From: Cirrosporium novae-zelandiae
Taxonomy: Eukaryota
NCBI GenBank assembly: GCA_026023565.1
Contig: JAPETS010000001.1
Span: 1,731,245 to 1,751,244, forward strand
Reading direction: 5' to 3'
Length of the DNA: 20,000 bases
Shown here: positions 624 to 20,000 of the stretch, in pieces
Layout: every line of letters begins with the position of its first letter
Position numbering within the stretch: the stretch's first letter is position 1
Position numbers and translations under genes: made by a program
The notes under the pieces: model-generated
The model's input: only the letters and a program-made list of their open reading frames with translations
The model's database searches: none
What the model was told of the DNA's origin: nothing

Positions 624-2727
624 ATGGAAAGAAACAAAGCCAACCAAATAACTGCTGCGGCTGTAGATGAAAAATTTGTGGAGAAATATTCCTTTTCCAG
701 CCCTCTCTTCGACCCTGGACTCTCCGATACCTCATCAGTTTCTTGTCGGTTGAAATCTAATTACACGTCCTCCAAGTCTGCGTCGTTGCAGGTCCTAGAA
801 ATCGCAAATGGGGAATGCAGTAAGAATCTATGATAAAGAAGCAATGAAGATATTAGCTTATTTATATAAGGCCTTCAGGAATGTTCAGCCCTTGAGCTAA
901 TTGATTCGAGTTTGGATGGCTCTTTTAACTCGGTCGAGAATACGGTACAGATGAGAATAATATAGTGCGTAAATAGCTAATGAGATGGGACATAGGATTT
1001 CTCAGGTCGTTCACGAATCGTGTAATGCCTAGCCTGAATACGAGATGGATGATCATAATACTAACATGAAATCTATAGATTTCTTCAACAAAATCCTGAA
1101 GATCAACCTAAAGTCCCTCAAACGGCGATTGATTTAGTTCGGATATTTGAATTCCTGAGGATACCCCCAGCTTATCTCGAAGTGCTGACAGCATATAATG
1201 GGATTCATTCAGCCGTCACTTCATATTCGGAGCATGAATCCACACCTGAACTATTCGGTCCGTCTTGCATATCCTCATATGAACTCCATATATAAAAGAA
1301 AGCCCCATTGCTTAGACCTCTCCTCCTTAGAACTCCTCATTTCAATGCCCGCCATATTCTGCATCATCGGATCGATTTATTTCCGCTACGTCATCCTTAC
1401 CAACACCACCACCCTCTTCATCTTCACCCCTTACACCACCAAGCTAATCACTGCTCTAACTCAAATCTACCGCCCATCTCCTGCTTCTCATTCCAACCCC
1501 TCCACCCCCACTGACCTCTTTACCATCTTCGCAATCATTCTCACCCAGTTCCGCACCTCCCTGGATGAAGAACACAAGAGCCTCCACCAGGAAATCTGCG
1601 ACTTCGAATCTCAGACAGGTCTCATATTTTACCACGGTGGGAAAAGTCTCCCAGAGACCTTGCGGCAGGAATATGGCCAGCTAAAGAGAGGTCCATATGA
1701 GTACGACGGAAGCATTTTGCTATTGGAGTGGATTACTAGGTTTCAGATCGGGTTAACGGAGTTTCTGTTGGAACAACATAAAGTACTCATAGGATTGATT
1801 AGCGAACACGCTTCCTCCCCTTCTCCCCTAAAACTAGAAACAGAAACTAAAACAGCCTGTACCCCCTCCTCTCCTCCTTCTCTTCCACCACACACCACGC
1901 AAAAAACAATCTCCTCCCTAACCCTCCACTTTTCATTCTTAACGCACAACCTCACCCATGTCCTGCGCCTGCGCAATCGCGCCCGCATCCAGCTAAATGT
2001 AGTGGAAAGTTCCATTACCCAAAACGAAAACCTGACCAACATCTCGATTGCTGAATCCACACGGAAGGATGAAGTGGCGATGAAGGAGATTGCTGAATCT
2101 ATACGGAGGGATAGAGTGGCGATGAAGGAGATTGTGGCGGTGACGATGGCATTTTTGCCGGCTACCTTTGTTGCTGTAAGTAAAGTCTCCTTTACTATTT
2201 CCGAAGGAATGGCTATCTATTATCAAAAAAGCGCAGAAAAAAACCTAGCTTGGCTTTTTTTTTCATATTCATCACCACATATCATCCATCCATCCATCCA
2301 TCCACCAACCCATACCCAAACACCCCAAAAACCAACCCGTAGCCTTATTTACCCACACTCACACCCATACTCATCCAAAAACCACAAACGGACCTTCTTC
2401 TCCATGTCCTTTTTTCACAATGGTCCCGAAACCTCCCAATCCGCAATCCACTCCACCGTTTCCAAAAATCGGTATCTCTATCTCGCATTTACGATTCCGC
2501 TTACGCTGGTTGTCGTTGTCGTTTGGATTGGCTGGATTAGATGGAAGGATGAAGGGAAAGGGGTGGGAAAGAGGGGGAAAGAAAGAAGGAGGAGACAGGG
2601 GGGGGATGTGGATGTTGGTGTGGATTCGGAGTGTACGGGGATAGAGGGAAAGGAGAATGGGGATGGGAGTGGGGATTGGGTGGTGGTAGAGGGGAGGAGG
2701 AGGATGAAGGTCGTTGTTGGTGGATAG
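624..2727 (+). CDS. Fungal CorA-like (Mg2+ transporter superfamily) membrane protein; last intron acceptor is non-canonical, so possibly impaired
   Basis: Exons join in frame: 624-819, 871-944, 996-1021, 1079-1257, 1331(or 1316)-2175, 2392-2727, giving about 551 aa. Introns 820-870, 945-995, 1022-1078 and 1258-1330 are GT..AG. The C-terminus has the fungal CorA-like signature: a coiled coil ending in ...RRDRVAMKEIVAVTMAFLPATFVA|TFFSMSFF, then a second TM segment YLYLAFTIPLTLVVVVVWIGW. Confidence 0.75.
2047..2130 (+). repeat. 42-bp in-frame tandem duplication in the CorA-like gene
   Basis: 2047-2088 encodes IAESTRKDEVAMKE and 2089-2130 encodes IAESIRRDRVAMKE; the DNA copies share gtggcgatgaaggag exactly. 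Confidence 0.9.
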
Positions 2728-7084: not shown

Positions 7085-9315
7085 ATGGCTGATCCTATGC
7101 TGGCTTTTACGCCTGCTACTTCACGAGCTTGCAGCCGTTGTCATAGTCGCAAAGTTAAAGTACAGTATTGTGCTACTATCCTGTGCATTGATCTTGACTA
7201 ATCTTCGCAGTGTGATTATAGACTTCCGCAGTGTACAGCATGTCAACGCCATGGAGGACAGTGCAATATTACCGAGTGCCTATCATATTCCTACCACGTA
7301 GTCGCATCCCTTCAAGAACGTATACAGACACTCGAAGCCGAGCTTCAAAGCTATCGACTAGGATTTGGCCAAGAAAAAGCGCCACCACCATTAGGACATG
7401 AAAATAGTATACCTCAAGATGCGGAAGATATAAGGAGCTTGGCAGAGGAGGTCGGAAGCCTAGCTCTAGGAGGGAATAGAAATGCAACCATGGAATACGG
7501 TGAGCTAGAATCATTCAAGTATAAAGAGCATAGGCTCAGTTTATATCTGATTCCTTTCATTTGGCATTCATCAGTTTCCAGCATGGAACGGCCGTCGATT
7601 GACAAATCATGTTAATAACCTAACTCGCAGTCGGAAGTGCTTCGGGAGCCACTTTTACAAAGATATTTTTTCGGCAGCTTGGGTTCAAAAGGTCCAATCT
7701 TCTCAACGATCCAGAGTATCCTGAAGCTATACCGCAATCTGGGCTTGACGACATGGTCATACGAGCAGGTCTGCCAAGCCCGAAGGTTGCAGAATTTCTC
7801 CTGTCTAGCTATATATCAAACATCCACATCTGGTGGCCGCTATTAGATCTTTCGACCACTAGAATCTGGCTCAGACAGATGTTCAAGGAACCAGCAAGAT
7901 GTCATGCCCAGATCAAATTTTTCATTTTCATAATCTTCGCATTAGGGGCCCACGAGAGCGCAACCGATCCCGAGTATTTAAAAATGCGTGATATTTATTC
8001 TCCAAAAGAGTATTTTGCAACCTGTTCCCAGTATTATGAGAACATCTCCTATACGGGACGGGACTTGAGGAATGTGCAGGCATGCCTGCTTCTGACACTG
8101 TGGATGCTACGCTCTTTGGATAATATGAACTATAATAATTTGTGGCAAATGAGCCGTCTGACAATGAGTATTGCAATTGAAATTGGCTGTCATCGCAATA
8201 ATCCTCGGTGGAAACTTGGTACAGCAGAACAGGAGTTGCGCAATAGGGTATTTTGGTGCACATTCGGGATGGAAAGGTAATGTCATGGCTGCCTTGGTTG
8301 ATGGAGCTAACAAAGAACAGAATGATAGCAGTATTTACGGGGCGCGTCCTGTCTATCCGGAACCATGCTATTGATGCTCCATTTCCGCGCGCTATGGATA
8401 GTGATACCTTAACTAGATCCCAGGCAAGAGGATCGCCAACTTTAGAATTGAAAGGCCTCCTTCCTGCTATCCACATGTTCCGACTGAGGCGGATAGCGGG
8501 TGATGTGCTCGAATCCGTTTATATTGCACGACCCGCTGCGAATTCCAAGATGGACCAGATATATAGCACCGTAGATAGGTTACGGGGGGAACTAATTGAG
8601 TGGATGGCTAATACAGACAAGGCCGCCACCCCAGGATCTAAAGAACACATGGAATTGGTTATTGAACATTCTCTAACTGTTCTCATCCTGAATCGGCCTT
8701 CCCCAACATTTATAATACCTTCTCCTACAATGCTTGCGGCTTGCCAGGAGGCATCAGACATTGCTTTAAAATTGTGGACAAAACTCCTAATATCTAGTAC
8801 CTCGACATCTGTTATTAATTTTCGGACGTTTAAAGACATCCTTATTACTGGAGTTGCAGGACTATATTGCGCTTGGTAAGTCCATTCCATAACCCAACCA
8901 AAGAAACCTATCCGGTTGTTAATCTCCTGTGCCTATTAGGAGATCACCAAACCCCAGCTCTGCCAATATATCAGACACCTCAACAATGTGTTTAGATTTA
9001 CTTGATAGAGCTTGTCGAGAGAGACCTAGTCTTATTAAATATAGACATCTCTATGCCGCCCTTGTGGAAGCCACCATGGCGGCTTGTGAGAAGCAAGCCG
9101 TCTTGAAGCAATCTCATCAAGATCTTACGATGATGCTTGAACCACTTGATGCACAATCTGCAAATGCTGTTGATGCTGTTCTTGGAGATGTATCATCTGT
9201 AATGGGCTGGAATACAGCAGATTCCTCTTTGGATGACTGGCTATCAGCTTTGATGGCGGACCCTAATGACCTTGTATCCACAAGTTTAGATTCCCCAGGT
9301 CACCAGTTCATGTGA
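7085..9315 (+). CDS. Zn(II)2Cys6 transcription factor with fungal middle homology region (UaY/Ppr1-like)
   Basis: Exons 7085-7159, 7211-7499, 7631-8276, 8321-8875, 8940-9315 encode 646 aa. Zinc cluster ACSRCHSRKVK|CDYRLPQCTACQRHGGQC is followed by a coiled coil (VASLQERIQTLEAEL), YVGSASGATF, the MHR motif AIEIGCHRN...ELRNRVFWCTFGMER|MIAVFTGRVLSI...IDAPFP, and an acidic C-terminal tail. Confidence 0.93.
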
Positions 9316-11062: not shown

Positions 11063-13427
11063 ATGAATCCTGTCAATGCGCTCGAGAGCCAGGAGTTGGC
11101 AAAGGGACATGAACCCAAACTGGCAACTCCAGTTCTGGAAAAAGAGCTGGAGTTGAAGGCCAATGATCATCCATCAATAACCGAGGTTGATCCGGACAAA
11201 CCATCGCCGACCGAGGAGGAACTCCAGACTTTGCATCGAGTTCCTGGAAAGGTCCCTTGGCAAGCTTACAGTGTTGGCTTTGTCGAATTTTGCGAGCGTT
11301 TCTCCTACTATGGATGTACTGCCGTTTGTATGTCCACTGTCACTCCAACTAGATTATAAGGTGCTAATAAATATGTCTAGATGTCAATTTCATTCAACAG
11401 CCACTGCCAGATGGGTCCTCCACTGGCGCAGGTTTTTCTGGCCAGTCTGGTGCATTGGGTATGGGTCAGAGAGCTTCAACCGGATTGACAACTTGTAAGC
11501 AAATCCAAACTAATATATTGAGGGTGGTGGGGGACCGGATATTTTCGTACCATGACTTGAGCGAATCGTACATGTCTTTTCACCGCCCTCAACCTCAACC
11601 ATAACGATACAACACTCTCATGCTCACTCATGTATAGTCAACTCGTTCTGGTCATACACAATGCCCCTTGCGGGTGCATATGTAGCTGATCAATACTGGG
11701 GACGCTTCAAGACAATTCAATGTGGTATTGGTCTTGCGCTTCTCGGCCATTTGATCTTGGTCATCTCCGCAATTCCACCTGTCCTCAAGAATCCTCATGG
11801 AGGCCTAGCTGCCTTTACAATTGGATTAGTAATCATGGGCCTTGGAACCGGGGCTTTCAAGCCCAATGTCTCTGTCCTGATCTCAGAGCAGTACAGAGAG
11901 ACAAGGATGTATGTCACCACAGACAAAAAAGGACAACGTGTCATTGTAGACCCTTCATTGACAATCTCCCGAATTTACTTGTGGTTTTATCTGATGATCA
12001 ATATCGGCTCTTTGATTGGCCAGATTACAATGGTATATGCGGAAAAATACGTTGGTTTCTATCTTGCGTTTCTTCTCCCGACACTCATGTTTACCATGGC
12101 CCCCATCGTCTTATTCATATGCCGACACAAGTATATCCTTGCGCCCCCAACCGGTTCCGTTCTTGGAAAGGCCTTGCATTTATGGGCGTTCGCAGCCAAG
12201 GGCCGTTGGTCATGGAACCCAGCAACGACAAGGTATCTAGAAACGCTACAGAGCCTTTGAACATTCAGGTCAGCTAATGGTATTATAGGAAGAACATGTT
12301 GGCCGACGATTTTTGGGAAAAGGCGAAGCCAAGCAACGTAGCGATCAAGCCGAAATGGATGACCTTTGACGATGCCTGGGTAGACGAGGTTCGTCGTGGA
12401 TTGATGGCATGCAGGGTGTTTCTTTGGTATCCGCTTTACTGTAAGTTTTTTACTCTTATCTAATATGGGACCGGTGATTGGTATTTAGCTATTTGTAAAT
12501 TTGAGCACCGAGAAGCTCTCGGTTGGAAATCAATGCCAATGTACTTGGCTAGGGGCTAAATACTAATGACCTGGGACTGTATTTATAACCTAACTGGAGG
12601 CTCACTATTTTATAGGGCTGTGCTATGTCCAGATTAACAACAACATCACATCTCAGGCCGCTACAATGGAGCTTCACGGTGCCCCTAATGATCTGATCCA
12701 GAATCTGGATCCTTTGGCCATCATTATCCTCATTCCTATCCTCGACATCTGGGTTTACCCTGCCATGCGAAAAGCAGGAATCAGATTCACACCATTGAAA
12801 AAGATTGCCTGCGGTTTCTTTGTTGCCGCATGTGGCATGGTGTCAGCAGCCGTGATTCAGTACTATATTTACCACACAGGTGCATGCGGACACTACATGA
12901 ACTCCTGTGATACAGTTGGTAAGCATCTCCAATCCAAGTATCCTCCCATCCCAAACATCATTTCAATCAACCTAAGTTAGATAGAACTAACAAACTATAT
13001 AATTCTAGCTCCAATCAATGTGTGGGTCCAAACAGTGCCATATGTCCTCGTGGCCATGTCCGAGATCCTAGCTTCTGTAACGAGCTTGGAATATGCCTTC
13101 ACCAAAGCACCTAAAAACATGCGATCCACCGTCCAAGCCGTCGCTCTCTTCATGAATGCAATTTCCTCTGCCATTGCCCAAGCCTTTGTCTCCCTGTCAG
13201 ATGACCCCCTTCTCATCTGGAACTATTCTGTCATCGCCATCCTCGCCTTCATCGGTGGCTGCGGCTTCTGGCTGAATAACTATAAGCTGGATAGGGAGGA
13301 GGATAAGCTCAACATGCTTCCGGCGGCGAGCTATTCGGGAAAGACGAGAGACGAAACCAGAGTAGAGGAGGAGGGAGCCGAGATAGTGGGGTCTTCTGTT
13401 GAAGGTGAAATCAACGAGAAGAAGTAA
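11063..13427 (+). CDS. PTR2: POT/PTR family proton-dependent di/tripeptide transporter
   Basis: Exons 11063-11327, 11381-11494, 11638-12232, 12289-12440, 12616-12918, 13009-13427 encode 615 aa. Motifs: VEFCERFSYYG (ExxERFxYYG), GAYVADQYWGRFKTI, GLGTGAFKPNVS, FYLMINIGSL, LEYAFTKAPKNMRS. Confidence 0.96.
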
Positions 13428-14351
13428 TAGGGGATGAGTAGATGGATTGATACAGTACTGTGTATCTGTTAGAGTAGGATAATTAATACAGCGACTCTGT
13501 ATTTATCTACACATTGTATTTATTGCATGTGATTGGTATTGATATTGATGAAACCACAACGTTCTCCTTCAGCAACCAGATCCTAGCTAAGCTGAGAGGT
13601 CCATTTTTTCCATGGTAGTGGTGTGTTATACAAGCATTCCAATCCTACAATCCTAGAACTCCATATACCCCAGCCAGTTTCTTATCAACACCCATCCCAA
13701 TCTCGCCACCAAAAAGTAAACTAAAACACATGCCTGCAACATTTCCCTCTTTTACCCCTGCACGAGCGATAACAAACACTAATTAAGGTTGTCAACCTAC
13801 TACAGTACATACAGTACAAGTCTCAGCACTCCCTGGACTACAACTCCTGAATATCCTATTATTAAATGTCCCCTATTATAATAAGCTTTTTGTCCTGTGG
13901 TATTGATAGATATTTGTGGCGATAAGTACAGCCGTAGCAAGCTGGTTTTTGTTTAGACTTGGTACAGTACAGTGCCGAAACTCTACATGAAATACCGAAA
14001 CCTACACTTCCCGAGGCTGACAATAATAATGACAATGTTACCTCGAATATTTTTTTATCTATTTGGACAAATCAGGATTAGGGAGTTAATCAGCCGTACT
14101 TTGCAAAAAATTCTACGAAATAGCCTACATAGAACATCACCATCTATCTATTAAATCTTAGGAACCCTAATTTTACAATATCATTACGCACACAAAAATG
14201 TAAAAAAATATTTTATTTTATTCCTTTCCTCCCCCCTCTTTACTTTACTTTACTTCGCTTTTGCCACTCCATCACTTACTTAATCCACAACCCCATCCAA
14301 ATCTTCAGCCAACCACACAAGACCTTCTTCTGATCCCAAAGAAAAAGAAAA

Positions 14352-14519
14352 GCGGGACTGGCGCAATGGTAGCGCACCAGACTGTTCGTTTTCCCCTGTT
14401 TTCCCCTGTTTTCCCTTGCTTCCTTAACGTCATCTTTCTTTCTTCCAATTAAAAACTAACGAATGTGTTTGTTATATAGTCTAATCTGGGGGTTGTGAGT
14501 TCGAGTCTCACGTTCCGTG
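14352..14519 (+). tRNA. tRNA-Arg(UCU) gene interrupted between positions 33 and 34 by a 96-nt spliceosomal-type intron (14384-14479)
   Basis: Exons 14352-14383 and 14480-14519 join to a 72-nt cloverleaf. Acceptor stem gcgggac/gttccgt with discriminator G; D arm gcgc-aatggta-gcgc; anticodon arm ccaga-CTTCTAA-tctgg; variable loop gggtt; T arm gtgag-TTCGAGT-ctcac. A-box TGGCGCAATGG and B-box GTTCGAGTC are intact. Confidence 0.88.
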
Positions 14520-14529
14520 CTTTATATTG

Positions 14530-14536
14530 TTTTTTT
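14530..14536 (+). terminator. Oligo-T RNA polymerase III-type terminator of the tRNA gene
   Basis: A T7 run lies 10 nt after the discriminator base, followed by further T runs. Confidence 0.7.
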
Positions 14537-14791
14537 GGTTTTTTTGTTTTGAGTGTGTGGGTTTGATTAGATTAGATTAGATGGAATTTTGTGCGGTTAA
14601 GTATATGTAGGTGTCATTTTTATTGTGTTTGAATTAATTTCAATAATTCCTTGGAGGGTTCCAAGCAGGATGAAGTGGGCAATATACTCGACTTTCCATT
14701 CCCAACATCGCCCTCTTCCATTCTGGTGATAGTGCTGTTGGAAGCATTCAATGAGGAAGGATGCTGACTAAGTGCCGCCAAGGATCTAGGA

Positions 14792-16270
14792 ATGACAACA
14801 GTTCTGTTCGATACAAGACATGATACGAATACATCCGCCATGTCTCACAAAATCTCGGTGGAATTGTCACATTCCACTTGCAATCACGATACCCTGATAT
14901 TAGAATCTTCTGGTTATGTCTCCAAGGTGGATTATACAAGGCCCGCCGAGCAACAACGAGCGGCGGCCACGACAGCACAAGGACGCATCAATTCAAATCC
15001 AAAAGGTAAAAGGAAACGAGGAGTAGAGAACGCGCCTGAATTTTTATTATCAGAATTGTTTCCTGCTCCATTGGTGCTACCCGGGGATGATCTGGCACTA
15101 GATCCTCAATATCCCTCCCAGAGTCTACGCTCATGGGTACGGGAGAAGGAACGCAACAAAGTAACATCTGAGAGGAACACTGTCTATGTGGCAGCGTCTC
15201 CGGAAGTGGGAGCTGACGTTAATTTCATTCGCGCCTGGAGCGAAGTGCAACAACAGGATAACGAGAATCATCCTCCATACCCAACGCAACCTCAGGTGCA
15301 GGATGTTGTAGATTACCTATCTGCTTTCTATTATGGATTGCCCGTCAAGAAGCTCTCTGCGAAGCTCCACTTTACAAGCTGGGATGATGGCCATTCAAAA
15401 ACTAAGAAAGCCAAAACCCGTGCTTCAACACCAAACTTCATTGGACTCAATACCTCTCTTGAATGCGTGCGCATCCGCACCCGACCCTCTAGGGATGACA
15501 TATTTCCTCGCCAACTTAATTTGGATGATCTTCTAGATGCAGCAATAAGTGTATTGCCGGACGATGCGTACGCATTACTAATGCTTGTGCAGCATGACCT
15601 CTTCGAAGAGGAGGACGACCTATTTGTATGCGGTCGAGCATATGGAGGCAGCCGTGTAGCAGTCATCTCTACCGCAAGATACAACCCGGAGCTAGATAGT
15701 GTACAAGACGTAGAGCGAGACCATGCTTGGCCCGCATCACACTGCGAGGAGTATCTACAGGAACGCTGTGCGAGCACCTCGAAACAAATTGGACGACCTA
15801 AAAAGAAGACCAAGACCTCAGCTGCTGCTTCAGACAAGCATAATTCCTCATTCTCGATTTCCATGGATGGTATCACGATTTCCCCGCTGCAGGCTGCCGT
15901 ATCCGCCCACAGAGCTTTACCCTCATTAATAGAAGCACCCTCCACCGCAGCGCTCTCAGGCTTGTGGCTCGGTCGCGTATGCCGCACCTCGAGCCACGAG
16001 CTCGGCCACTGCTTTGGCATGGATCACTGTGTATATTATGCCTGCTCCATGCAGGGCAGCGCATCGCTCACGGAGGATGCCCGACAACCACCATACCTCT
16101 GTCCCGTTGATTTGGCAAAGATGCTACGAGCTACGGGGGCAGATGCGGGGGATCGCTTAGAGGCGCTTCTGGCCTTCTGTGGGCACCGTGATCATGAAGA
16201 TGTTCATTTGTTTAAGGCGTTTGCGGCATGGATTCGGTGTCGGTTGGCAATAATGAAAAACTTGGACTGA
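14792..16270 (+). CDS. Archaemetzincin-like (peptidase family M54) zinc metalloprotease
   Basis: Intronless 492-aa ORF (alternative start ATG 14840). It has the HEXXHXXGXXH motif followed by the archaemetzincin Cys pattern (HELGHCFGMDHCVYYACSMQG...YLCPVDLAK), plus RQLNLDDLLD, DLF...FVCGRA and RVAVISTARY. No obvious signal peptide. Confidence 0.9.
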   Translation: MTTVLFDTRHDTNTSAMSHKISVELSHSTCNHDTLILESSGYVSKVDYTRPAEQQRAAATTAQGRINSNPKGKRKRGVENAPEFLLSELFPAPLVLPGDDLALDPQYPSQSLRSWVREKERNKVTSERNTVYVAASPEVGADVNFIRAWSEVQQQDNENHPPYPTQPQVQDVVDYLSAFYYGLPVKKLSAKLHFTSWDDGHSKTKKAKTRASTPNFIGLNTSLECVRIRTRPSRDDIFPRQLNLDDLLDAAISVLPDDAYALLMLVQHDLFEEEDDLFVCGRAYGGSRVAVISTARYNPELDSVQDVERDHAWPASHCEEYLQERCASTSKQIGRPKKKTKTSAAASDKHNSSFSISMDGITISPLQAAVSAHRALPSLIEAPSTAALSGLWLGRVCRTSSHELGHCFGMDHCVYYACSMQGSASLTEDARQPPYLCPVDLAKMLRATGADAGDRLEALLAFCGHRDHEDVHLFKAFAAWIRCRLAIMKNLD

Positions 16271-16689
16271 AGCTTTAGTAATGATTTAAGAGGATTGGAT
16301 AGATGTATGTGATATGATATTTGATATAGAAAGTCGGCAAAAGAGAGGAATTAGGTTTTTTAAGAATATGCAAAGTGAGATAATTAGATGTTCGCCATTG
16401 CCCATTTCCCGAAGAGCGACATGTGCGGACAATATAAAATGAAATCATCATCATGATCATCAAGAAGGATATATGTGATTCATTGATATACAAGTCTCGT
16501 CGGCGGCAACAGAATTAAAGTTTCAATAAAACCATCAGCCTTGAATCACGACAGCCTTGGATTGATTTTGTTATTTAGCCTAGGGAACAAACCGGTTTCT
16601 TCGGCGTCCTTTTCTTTTCTTTTGCTTCATCCTGGAGAAAGGACTATTCAATACCTTAATACCCACATACATACCTAGTGTACCCGTCA

Positions 16690-19660
16690 AGCACTTCACT
16701 CACTCACACTTACGAATAAACAAATATCATCATCATTCCATCCCTTACCCCAACTTCAGGAAACCCCAGGAAACCTCAGACCTTAGCCCTCCTCCCTCCC
16801 CCCCCCCCACATACAAAAATACTTCAAGAGAGGTTCTTCTCAATAAGTACCATGATGATGATGTACCGCCATCATAGCTCAAAGGTGACATGCGGATAAT
16901 AAAATGAATTATCATTATAACCAACATGATACTATGATTACTATATACATGTACCTCAGCTTCAGAAGGGAGTATGAAGTATGAAAACCAAACCAAACCA
17001 AAACCAAACTTCCTTCTCCTTTCTCCCTTCTCTTTTCTCCTTTCTCTTTTCTCCCTTCTGGGGTAGAATCACCTACTCACCCACTCACTCATCCACTCAC
17101 TCACTCATTCACTCACTCATTTACCCACTACAAATAAGAATGAATGGAATATCCTAGGTTTTCGGCGAATCGGCGTGTGTGTTCCTATTTCTGATAGATT
17201 GATAGATAGTGAAAGCGAGAAAGTGAGCGAGCGAGGGGGGGGGGAGTGAGGGTTGAAATCGGTCGGTGGATCGGGATGTTCGAATTGAAATGTATGGATT
17301 GTGTTGATTCGCCACGGAGAAATAGGGGAAACAGATAGGAAATGGGTAATTATAAAAGAAAAACCGCCATGGTTAATCTAATCGTAAAATCACATACCAA
17401 CACTTTGCCCAACTTCTTCCCCAGACTCTCCTCTCATTCTTCCCCTTTTTGACGTAAGCTACCTAGCCAACAATCTTCTTAACTCTTAACTAAATTAGAT
17501 AAGGAAAAGATAATAAATAAAGAATATACACACACATATATATATATACTCCTCGTTCCCTGAAGCAAAAAAAAAAAAAAAAAATTAAAATGTTGCTATC
17601 CCTATCACTAATTCCTATTACTATCCATCCTAGCATCATCCTGTTTATTTGTTTCAATAATTTTTTTACTCTATTTACTTGATTCCCTTTATTATATTCT
17701 CTATTTAATTCTCGGACTTGATAGATAATAGGTAATAATGTCGATAATAATACTTGAAGTGATTTTTTTAAATTATTTTAAATTATTTTTATTTTTTTAA
17801 GAGGGGGTTAGGAATAAGGGATTGGGAAGTGATGGTGGTATGGAAGATGGGAGGTGGGAAGTAGAAGGGAGGGGAGGTAAGGAGAGGTAAGGAGAGGTAA
17901 AGAGATAAGGGAAAACCAAATAATTCAAACTGATATTTAGCTTAGCCTTGCTGTCCATATCTTTCCTCCCTCCTATCTAGCCCACCCCAACTGTACATCC
18001 CAACACCTCTCCAATTGTTGACTCCCAACTCCCAACTCTTAAATCAAATGCACGACCCTCTTCACCAACCCTCTTACCACTCTCACTCTCACGCCCCCCC
18101 TATACACCCATACACCCATACACCCATACACCCATACACCCATACCCACACCTAGAACACAAAATCCAAAATCCCAAAATCCAAAAACTAAAAACCAGAA
18201 GCATTCCTAACCCCCTTCTTCCAAACCTTTTCAACCTTTTAAGACTTTTTCGGAATTTTTTAAGAGTTTTATGGGTAGTATAGTAGCTATTACAACAGAT
18301 ATAGATGCGACAAACTTGTAGATTTTTTTCTTATGTGTGGGAATTCGATAGCTGAATAGTGGGGGTGGTGCTACGTTACTGGTTTATAACTCTAATGGTG
18401 GCTAAGGGGATTGGTTTTGGGGGATGGGTGTGGGATAAACAATGTGGGATTTGAGGGATAAGGAACGAGGGGGGGTGGGAATGAATAAATAAGGGATGGG
18501 GGAAACTGGAAGAGGTAGATAGATAGGTAGACAGACAGACAGACAACTAAAATAAACCATATAAACCAACCAACCAATCAAGGAAAGAAAATAATTAGTA
18601 GAATCGGGATAGAAAAAAAAGAAAAAAAAAAGAAAAGGTCATTATATCCCCCCCCTCCCCCTTTCACCTCCAAAAAATACCTATCTCAACATTAAAAGAT
18701 TTTCGGATTTTGAAAAAAAAAAAAGGAGTGTTGGGTATTTGGTACGTGGGGAGATAGTAGTAGTAGTAGTAGTAAGGTGTAGAAAATTTTATATATTTAT
18801 TTTTTTTGTTCATCTTTTTTTTGGTTTTTGGTTGGAGGAATAGGGGTTTGTTGGGAAGAGTTTGAATCTTAAAACGCATGTTTTGTTATATTATTCATGT
18901 ATTATATCTTGTATGTTTTTTGTTATTTGTGTGTTATTCCATTCATCTATATCGTACGGGAGGGGTGGGTAATGGGATTTTATAATGTTGAGGAAAGAAA
19001 GGGTGTAAGAGGAGAGGAGAGGAGAGGATTGGATAGGGTATGTATGTATGGATGGATATATATGAAAAAGGGGGCATGAGATGGTATGGTATGGATAAAT
19101 AAAGGTAAATCCTTATTACTCGGGTACTTTTGATCCCCTCCTCTTCTTTTTTTATTCTTTTCCCCCCCCTCCCCCCCTCAAAATAAATTTACAAGATATA
19201 TTAGTGTGTACAAGGCAAGTGTAAACAAGGGATATTATAACTAATATATTTCCATTTCCCATTTCCTTCTCCCCTCCATTTTTTCCCTCCCTTCCACACT
19301 CTCTCTCTCTCTCTATACAAGGCCAAAAAAGGCGGGGATCGTATGTTTAAATAATGCCCACTACTCTAAATTACACAGACCACATTTACAACATATTCAC
19401 CTTCCCTTGACCCCTTGACCCTTTGGCTCTTTCAACCCCCAGATCCTCTCAGACCCTCTCAGACCCTCATTCTGCAAACCAGCGCCAAAGAAATATATAG
19501 TAACTTTTTTTTGGTTTTTTTTTAAAAAAAAATATCCAAACCCAAACCCATTTCATTTAGTTTTATTTTTGTTTTTACTTTGACTTATTCTTACATACTC
19601 GTATTCTTTAACTATAAAACGATATATTTTTTTTTGCAAACTCAACTCTCATAGAAAAGA
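16690..19660. repeat. Microsatellite- and homopolymer-rich non-coding region
   Basis: (CACT)n at ~17077-17120, poly(A)18 at 17567-17584, (GGAGAGGTAA)x3 at 17871-17900, (TACACCCA)x5 at 18103-18142, (TAG)n at ~18754-18773, and alternating purine and pyrimidine tracts. The short ORFs here are low-complexity artefacts. Confidence 0.85.
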
Positions 19661-19668
19661 TGGAATCC

Positions 19669-19747
19669 ATCCAAAAAGATTGTTCTAGTCTTTGGGGATA
19701 AAATCCAAAAAGAATGTTCTAGTCTTTGGGGTTAAAATCAAAAAAGA
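19669..19747 (+). repeat. 34-bp tandem repeat, about 2.3 copies
   Basis: atccaaaaagattgttctagtctttggggataaa at 19669, atccaaaaagaatgttctagtctttggggttaaa at 19703, and a partial third copy at 19737. Confidence 0.9.
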
Positions 19748-19767
19748 AAGGGTGCTTCGCTCGAAAG

Positions 19768-19890
19768 AGTTTTGGAGTAAAAACTGGTAGCTCAACTACT
19801 ACTAAATCAGGTAGTAGAGTTCAATTAAGATTCTCAATAGGATTACATATTAGAGACCTCGAGGTAATCAGAGGTATTATTGCTTTTTAT
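19768..19890 (+). pseudogene. Fragment of a mitochondrial-type LAGLIDADG homing endonuclease (probable NUMT)
   Basis: It translates to SFGVKTGSSTTTKSGSRVQLRFSIGLHIRDLEVIRGIIAFY, resembling the segment after the LAGLIDADG helix (xF.....S.T.K.G.RVQLRFxIxxHxRDxxLxxxIxxYF). Codons are mostly A/T-ending (tta, aga, ggt, ata), as in fungal mtDNA. The LAGLIDADG helix itself is missing. Confidence 0.7.
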
Positions 19891-19969
19891 TCGGGTTATT
19901 ATGATTCGAACATAACAAATCCTCAGCCCAAAAGAGGCGCCTAACCAACCCGGCTCTAACCCGTATACC

Positions 19970-20000
19970 CAGAGAATATCCGATTCGAACGGATGTGGTC
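19970..20000 (-). tRNA. 3' half of a tRNA, truncated by the window edge; resembles fungal mitochondrial tRNA-Ser
   Basis: The minus strand reads gaccac-atccg-TTCGAAT-cggat-attctct-g: a perfect 5-bp T stem with TTCGAAT loop, a 7-nt acceptor strand and discriminator G. No oligo-T terminator follows. The anticodon is outside the window, so the identity rests on recalled similarity only. Confidence 0.6.

Follow-up and report, generated by a model that had tools for sequence, protein, structure and literature searches.

A proposed spliceosomal-type intron in the anticodon loop of an ascomycete tRNA-Arg(UCU) gene, probably one of a recurrent class

The plus strand of the window, i.e. the whole stretch of 20,000 nucleotides analysed here, carries a tRNA-Arg(UCU) gene at 14352-14519 which, as read from the sequence, is split between U33 and U34 by an insert of 96 bp at 14384-14479. 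We consider it probable, at roughly 60%, that this is a real nuclear copy of the gene which has acquired a spliceosomal-type intron and that it represents a recurrent, apparently undescribed class of split tRNA genes. The window is ascomycete nuclear DNA; it contains a Fungal_trans domain, PTR2 and further genes, and the nearest protein clusters are from Ascomycota.

With introns allowed (option -i) ARAGORN placed a tRNA-Arg(tct) at 14352-14520 and located an intron of 96 nt behind its position 33. Excision of 14384-14479 by a script yielded a 72-nt sequence that the program folded into a perfect Arg(tct) cloverleaf. After splicing in silico the molecule had an anticodon stem of 5 bp and a loop of 7 nt with U33, the anticodon UCU and A37, as well as a G1.U72 pair and G73. 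Its body resembles that of other eukaryotic Arg(UCU) genes, and its D arm and anticodon arm match those of 31 metagenome Arg(TCT) genes among the matches listed (see below). In default mode ARAGORN missed the split gene, its sole call in the window being a tRNA-Pro elsewhere, and Rfam reported no tRNA in the window at the gathering score and none in 14000-20000 at E values up to 10. An earlier note on this DNA had supposed that tRNA software might report a tRNA-Asn; this did not happen, as the default searches were silent and ARAGORN with introns allowed gave Arg.

The limits of the exons were taken from ARAGORN -i and from the cloverleaf after excision. The 5' exon (14352-14383, tRNA positions 1-33) comprises the 5' strand of the acceptor stem, the D arm, the 5' strand of the anticodon stem, C32 and U33, and includes the A-box region at about 14359-14370. 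The 3' exon (14480-14519) starts with the anticodon (14480-14482), followed by A37, A38, the 3' strand of the anticodon stem, the variable loop, the T arm and the 3' strand of the acceptor stem; the B-box region lies at about 14498-14508 and G73, at 14519, is the last base. RNA polymerase III (Pol III) terminates transcription at T runs, and two terminator-like runs of seven T are located at 14530-14536 and 14539-14545, the first beginning 11 nt past the gene. Both box regions are intact, with the distance between them stretched by 96 bp. Tandem repeats were present upstream of the gene (CTTTA, 3.6 copies, 14238-14261), at the terminator (T-rich 8-9-mers, 14529-14550) and further downstream (GATTA, 3.6 copies, 14565-14582).

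The insert opens with the 5' splice-site-like hexamer GTTCGT (14384-14389), which fits GTNNGT. A branch-site-like ACTAAC follows at 14455-14460; its putative branch A (14459) precedes the end of the insert by 20 nt. The 3' splice-site-like TATAG at 14475-14479 closes the insert, as indicated by the sequence and by the joint in a paralog. The terminal AG is the first one past the branch site, none being found between 14460 and 14478. These three motifs and the gene at 14352-14519 were present as the earlier note had described them. The base composition is A17 C24 G11 T44 with three runs of four T and none longer, and Tandem Repeats Finder detected 2.8 copies of GTTTTCCCCT at 14388-14415 (100% matches, score 56). 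That it has no run of five or more T carries no statistical weight: 33% of shuffled inserts also lacked such a run and 67% had one. Of the 39,808 segments of 96 nt on both strands of the window, 3 combined GT and AG with a CTAAC located 8-40 nt before the end, and with the additional demand for GTNNGT the insert itself was the single segment left (1/39,808). Its 5' border, branch site, 3' border and exact excision make a spliceosomal-type (U2-type GT-AG) intron the best reading of the insert.

The insert had been said to share the architecture of the mRNA introns in the window, a comparison that extends to two frame-checked introns only. One of 90 nt at 12919-13008 has GTAAGC, ACTAAC 18 nt from the end and CTAG, the other of 44 nt at 8277-8320 has GTAATG, GCTAAC 10 nt from the end and ACAG; both were defined by the reading frame and Pfam coordinates, and Pfam mapping of the PTR2 fragments revealed no further mRNA introns in the window. 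Length class, branch site and 3' end of the insert agreed with this claim, but the 5' start did not: GTTCGT departs from GTAAGC and GTAATG at +3/+4 and is the weaker 5' hexamer.

Contigs of the DNA run X1, which is probably derived from the source organism of the window, were aligned to window positions 13400-15300. The runs X2 and X3, which belong to the study of X1, gave no match in this region. One contig covered 13400-14509, intron included, with zero differences, a match to be read with the possibility in mind that X1 is the window's own source. A second contig of 11,320 nt matched 14357-14383 and then 14480-14509, skipping exactly the 96 nt from GT to AG. This paralog contig had a depth of 362 compared to 355 for the intron-bearing contig and was unrelated to the window upstream of 14357. 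Between the window copy and the paralog 14357-14383 and 14480-14514 were identical, while acceptor positions 4 and 5 were G in the former and A in the latter. A 35-nt unitig of X1 corresponding to 14480-14514 had a depth of 650 versus about 350 in its neighbours, which implies that it is common to two gene copies in the sample. The shared unitig breaks off immediately ahead of position 69, which pairs with position 4, and the acceptor-stem differences between the copies fit a compensatory change with pairing kept. The X1 sample contains two genes of one Arg(UCU) isodecoder, one uninterrupted and one split.

Because the paralog contig skips just those 96 bp, the borders of the insert are fixed exactly at 14384-14479. 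ARAGORN -i, the excision and the paralog contig together support what the earlier note had proposed, namely the Arg(UCU) identity, the insertion at 33/34 and the spliceosomal-type signals. Its dismissal of a canonical tRNA-Asn(GUU) with an intron at 37/38 was upheld as well, since the uninterrupted paralog shows the original loop with UCU. It had also suggested a search for another tRNA-Arg(UCU) gene, and the intronless copy in X1 is such a gene. Yet its further claim that this AGA-decoding tRNA needs the spliceosome in order to mature finds no support as it was written: with an intronless isodecoder copy in the same sample AGA decoding need not rest on the split copy. The earlier note had itself named intronless copies among the conditions that would refute it, a condition that counts only if the split copy is silent. 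The two copies should be distinguishable as mature tRNAs because their acceptor stems differ, with G4, G5 and C69 in the split copy and A4, A5 and probably U69 in the intronless one.

A pyrimidine-rich insert of low complexity with a short tandem repeat could be filler DNA, a fragment of a mobile element or a mis-assembly that happens to resemble an intron. The perfect agreement of the X1 contig over 13400-14509 argues against an artefact, though with the reservation about the origin of X1 given above, and so does the rarity of the signal combination in the window (3/39,808). No second copy of the insert was detected in the window or, at 80% likeness, among the X1 contigs, and there was no target-site duplication, zero letters being shared across the joint in the paralog; on the same grounds an introner-like or otherwise multicopy mobile insert was rejected. 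Furthermore, the pattern recurs in independent loci. Chance or artefact is hardly credible as an explanation.

The position in the anticodon loop raises the question whether the insert is a tRNA intron of the kind removed by protein enzymes, either a non-canonical BHB intron or the canonical 37/38 intron of a tRNA-Asn(GUU). According to the available part of PMC4090602 endonucleases of some algae cut BHB introns at unusual sites, and ARAGORN can be forced to report Asn(gtt) with other cut points. However, in strict register 1 of the 4 central-helix pairs of a BHB could form, the flanking helices reached 1/4 and 2/4 pairs, and the minimum free energy fold did not contain the motif. The 37/38 reading by TSEN requires C37, and the C located 3 nt ahead of its 3' site stands opposite C32 and leaves no anticodon-intron pair. 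It is also at odds with the original UCU loop of the paralog and with an insert of exactly 14384-14479. Finally, canonical introns are present in 17 of the 31 comparison genes listed, in each case directly after TCTA and with lengths of 7-43 nt, 96 nt being more than twice the length of the longest. We consider removal by a protein enzyme highly improbable.

A group I intron was likewise rejected. Bacterial and organellar group I introns of tRNA genes share with the insert the position directly after U33, but 96 nt are too short for a ribozyme, the context is nuclear, and Rfam gave no match at the gathering score or at E values up to 10. The same tool identified a group I intron in the metagenome locus L036 (minus strand, about 199-409), where a bacterial-type tRNA has a 207-nt insert after position 33 that matches Intron_gpI with 74.5 bits. 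In another locus, L070, the 5' half of a bacterial-type tRNA on the minus strand, downstream of the pattern match, is followed by a long AT-rich insert after U33; Cys/His-rich motifs seen by eye may point to a homing endonuclease in this tRNA intron.

A metagenome scan with a pattern of the D arm and the anticodon stem gave at least 122 loci with at least 123 pattern matches; it was aimed at one D-arm sequence, and its counts are not generalisable as frequencies. Among the 123 matches listed 31 continue with TCT, i.e. Arg(TCT). In this listed set 14 of 31 had no insert in the anticodon loop, 17 of 31 had a canonical insert directly after TCTA, and an insert at 33/34 was not found. GT-start inserts outside the anticodon loop were present in 3 of the 31 Arg(TCT) matches listed, L073, L077 and L095, and a chance find in the flank of L043 was a split tRNA-Leu(UAA) gene. 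Beyond the window there are, among the metagenome matches listed, at least five inserts with GT..AG and a branch site in four tRNA genes, at four other non-canonical positions, and four of the inserts are complete. Over all loci, the window included, the positions are 7/8, D arm, 33/34, T stem and T loop.

The tRNA-Arg(UCU) gene of L073 has a T-stem insert of 53 nt that runs from GTGAGT via TTGAC, 10 nt from the end, to TTAG, and in addition a canonical intron of 9 nt. In the tRNA-Arg(UCU) gene of L077 an insert at the same place of the T stem opens with GTTCGT, the same hexamer as in the window insert; the contig stops 31 nt into it. L095, again tRNA-Arg(UCU), has two inserts, one of 56 nt at positions 7/8 (GTACGT, TCTAAC 13 nt from the end, ACAG) and one of 72 nt at 59/60 in the T loop (GTACGA, GCTAAC 12 nt from the end, TTAG). 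The tRNA-Leu(UAA) of L043 is interrupted in the D arm by 69 nt at 261-329 (GTGAGT, GCTAAC 14 nt from the end, TAAG). Excision by script led to perfect cloverleaves in ARAGORN for all four complete genes, i.e. those of the window, L073, L095 and L043. Some insert borders can slide by 1-5 nt due to a repeated G, with GT..AG always being an allowed position. G1.U72 and G73 are common to the window gene, L073 and L095.

In the three other complete introns examined for a BHB, i.e. the T-stem intron of L073 and both introns of L095, the motif was absent with 0-2 of 4 pairs. None of the five complete introns contains a run of five or more T, and T runs are located 3' of the window gene, L073 and L095. 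Between L073 and L077 the exons are identical at 50 of 51 positions and the intron starts at 20 of 31, a score reached by 14 of 2000 shuffles, whereas the 5' flanks are unrelated. The 7-nt first exon of L095 equals the acceptor strand of L077.

A brute-force test, in which all GT..AG pairs 35-250 nt apart were excised from all loci and the window before ARAGORN was run, did not discriminate: GT..AG produced 32 'new' tRNAs compared to 18-40 for nine control dinucleotide pairs, from the same few loci. ARAGORN tolerates imprecise excisions, and the output was used only as a list of interrupted genes. Two candidates did not hold up. L112 was rejected as a spliceosomal case; its insert of 76 nt and the canonical intron of L084 are homologues, CTAAC is located 3 nt before AG, and TCG followed by T replaces TCTA, which may mark a decaying copy or an anticodon-shifted gene. 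The other, an intron-containing tRNA-Thr(ggt) called by ARAGORN in L043, proved to be a tRNA-Leu(TAA) that the program had modelled wrongly.

Some further properties of these loci were noted. L112 and L084 are Arg-like genes from one metagenome with long homologous inserts at the canonical place, 76 and 43 nt in length. In L043 (237-464) the split tRNA-Leu(TAA) adjoins an intronless tRNA-Arg(TCT) with zero spacer like a dicistronic pair; it has no T run close to its 3' end, and the flank contains GTAAGT..AG intron-like stretches in coding-looking DNA. L039, L050, L062 and L103, which share this D arm with the Arg(TCT) genes, are Arg(TCG) or Arg(CCT) genes and have canonical introns of 12-33 nt. 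As predicted from these sequences, canonical introns are common across the Arg isoacceptors of these environmental eukaryotes.

Splicing of the U6 intron of fission yeast is proven, whereas the window intron is known from DNA. The available part of the U6 review (PMC5855946) reports spliceosomal introns in U6 of fission yeast and other fungi, in U2, U5 and U1 of Rhodotorula hasegawae and in ascomycete rRNA, and calls the determinants of intron insertion into non-coding RNAs unclear. The window intron is similar in combining GT..AG with a branch site in the gene of a structured, abundant non-coding RNA; the U6 intron has a Pol III gene as host. The introns of snRNA and rRNA genes are species-specific and thought to originate from reverse splicing, and an intron-bearing paralog may occur beside an intronless one. 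In contrast to them the host here is a tRNA, which is not a part of the spliceosome and is absent from the list in the available part of PMC5855946. Moreover, the window intron is in the anticodon loop, and in the other loci the acceptor stem, the D arm or the T arm is affected.

Canonical TSEN introns also reside in the anticodon loop of nuclear tRNA genes, as in 17 of the 31 Arg(UCU) genes listed. The window insert is different in its position at 33/34 instead of 37/38, in its length of 96 nt compared to 7-43 nt, and in having GT, a branch site and AG but no anticodon-intron pair. BHB-dependent non-canonical tRNA introns occur in Archaea, Cyanidioschyzon merolae and nucleomorphs according to the available parts of PMC4090602 and PMC13578239. 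Like the introns described here, they are spread over many non-canonical positions, and a gene can have two or more of them, as L095 has. Unlike them, the four introns tested lack a BHB, the borders are GT..AG with CTAAC-like sites, and the host of the window intron is an ascomycete.

Searches of the full-text literature outside subscription journals and supplements revealed no published spliceosomal intron in a tRNA gene, in line with the statement of the earlier note that no tRNA case is well described. In the available parts of reviews on tRNA introns (PMC4090602, PMC13578239, PMC3978253) the string 'spliceosom' is absent or has one unrelated mention. The kind of intron is thus known and the host is new; as a class in tRNA genes it appears to be undescribed.

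A serious rival to a spliced gene is a dead copy, where the intron or its cDNA landed in a redundant Arg(UCU) gene and created a young, unspliced pseudogene, with AGA being read by the paralog. The intronless paralog is present at equal depth in the same sample, which would make the loss of the split copy harmless. The available part of PMC4090602 states that eukaryotic tRNA genes interrupted at odd sites in most cases have further synonymous copies beside them and are 'supposed to be pseudogenes'. In addition, GTTCGT is a weak 5' splice site beside those of the local mRNA introns, the three T4 runs inside the insert might weaken Pol III transcription, and the perfect 10-nt tandem repeat suggests unconstrained, recent change. 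Yet the exons are flawless, form a perfect cloverleaf and match the paralog in 14357-14383 and 14480-14514, the acceptor differences preserve pairing, and the terminator is retained. L073 and L077 keep such an intron together with conserved exons, and two of them in one still-perfect gene, as in L095, are unexpected if the genes are dead. We consider a dead copy unlikely. The conserved exons of L073 and L077, the cloverleaf of L095 that is intact despite two separate gains and the acceptor change of the window gene appear as signs of selection, while gene conversion by intact copies could be an alternative source of the exon conservation.

We favor the view that the window gene gained an intron and may be spliced, and the following sequence of events would account for it. 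The intron would have entered as RNA: a tRNA transcript would have taken it up by reverse splicing, and reverse transcription and recombination would have followed. A gain by reverse splicing can reasonably be inferred because the insert extends as a complete unit from GT to AG and no target-site duplication accompanies it. Transcription of the split gene by Pol III would continue, as suggested by the intact A and B boxes and the T7 terminator 3' of the gene. The precursor would give rise to a tRNA only if the spliceosome removed the intron, similar to the U6 snRNA of fission yeast, which is made by Pol III. After splicing the tRNA would be completed by RNase P and RNase Z and by the addition of CCA.

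Alternatively, the insert may be an intron of a Pol II transcript spanning the tRNA gene, either the 5' UTR of the downstream gene or a non-coding RNA, so that the position within the tRNA is incidental or the tRNA is released from this transcript. The ATG of the downstream gene (14792) is 273 nt away from the tRNA gene, and both neighbours share one strand. The first exon of L095 is 56 nt upstream of the A box, which is hard to reconcile with the usual placement of a Pol III start; because of this misfit a Pol II host transcript stays in play. The lack of a T run close behind the tRNA pair of L043 is in accord with it. On the other hand, every one of the six such introns interrupts the body of a tRNA, and a single gene of 72 nt contains two, which would not be expected of bystanders; moreover, T runs of the Pol III type are located behind the window gene, L073 and L095. 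We regard a Pol II host transcript as clearly improbable. Extending the spliced-gene reading, we tentatively suggest that spliceosomal introns have repeatedly entered nuclear tRNA genes at many positions, in some ascomycetes as well as in at least one further eukaryote (L043), and that these genes may still function via Pol III pre-tRNAs spliced by the spliceosome.

Spliceosomal introns are usually assigned to Pol II transcripts and a few snRNA and rRNA genes, endonuclease/ligase introns to position 37/38 of tRNAs. According to the available part of a 2025 paper (PMC12530127) no relationship at all is apparent among the three types of nuclear introns. True introns with GT-AG and a branch site in tRNA genes would blur the boundary between the types. 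If our reading is correct, there would be a third eukaryotic route of tRNA splicing beside TSEN/ligase and organellar self-splicing, and abundant Pol III transcripts other than U6 could encounter the spliceosome. Such genes would also provide examples of intron gain with the 'before' and 'after' alleles in one genome, rare material for the debate on reverse splicing. Furthermore, the tRNA gene sets of such genomes would be under-counted, as standard finders would be blind to the split genes. tRNAscan-SE 2.0 seeks non-canonical introns in archaeal mode only and with BHB models, as stated in the available part of PMC8450103. Because of this mode and the misses by default ARAGORN and Rfam, split tRNA genes are likely missing from fungal annotations.

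Finally, some other features of the window were recorded. The tRNA-Pro(tgg) called by ARAGORN at 19891-19963 on the minus strand had no Rfam match at E values up to 10, although Rfam found tRNAs in the metagenome loci; it may be a degenerate or tRNA-like sequence. An open frame of 512 aa at 1189-2727 (plus strand) had no Pfam match, and its nearest ESM Atlas clusters were ascomycete, some of them CorA-like (score 0.95). The open frame of 500 aa that adjoins the tRNA gene (14768-16270, plus strand, first in-frame ATG at 14792) showed a partial match to Peptidase_M54 of the archaemetzincin type in residues 398-446.
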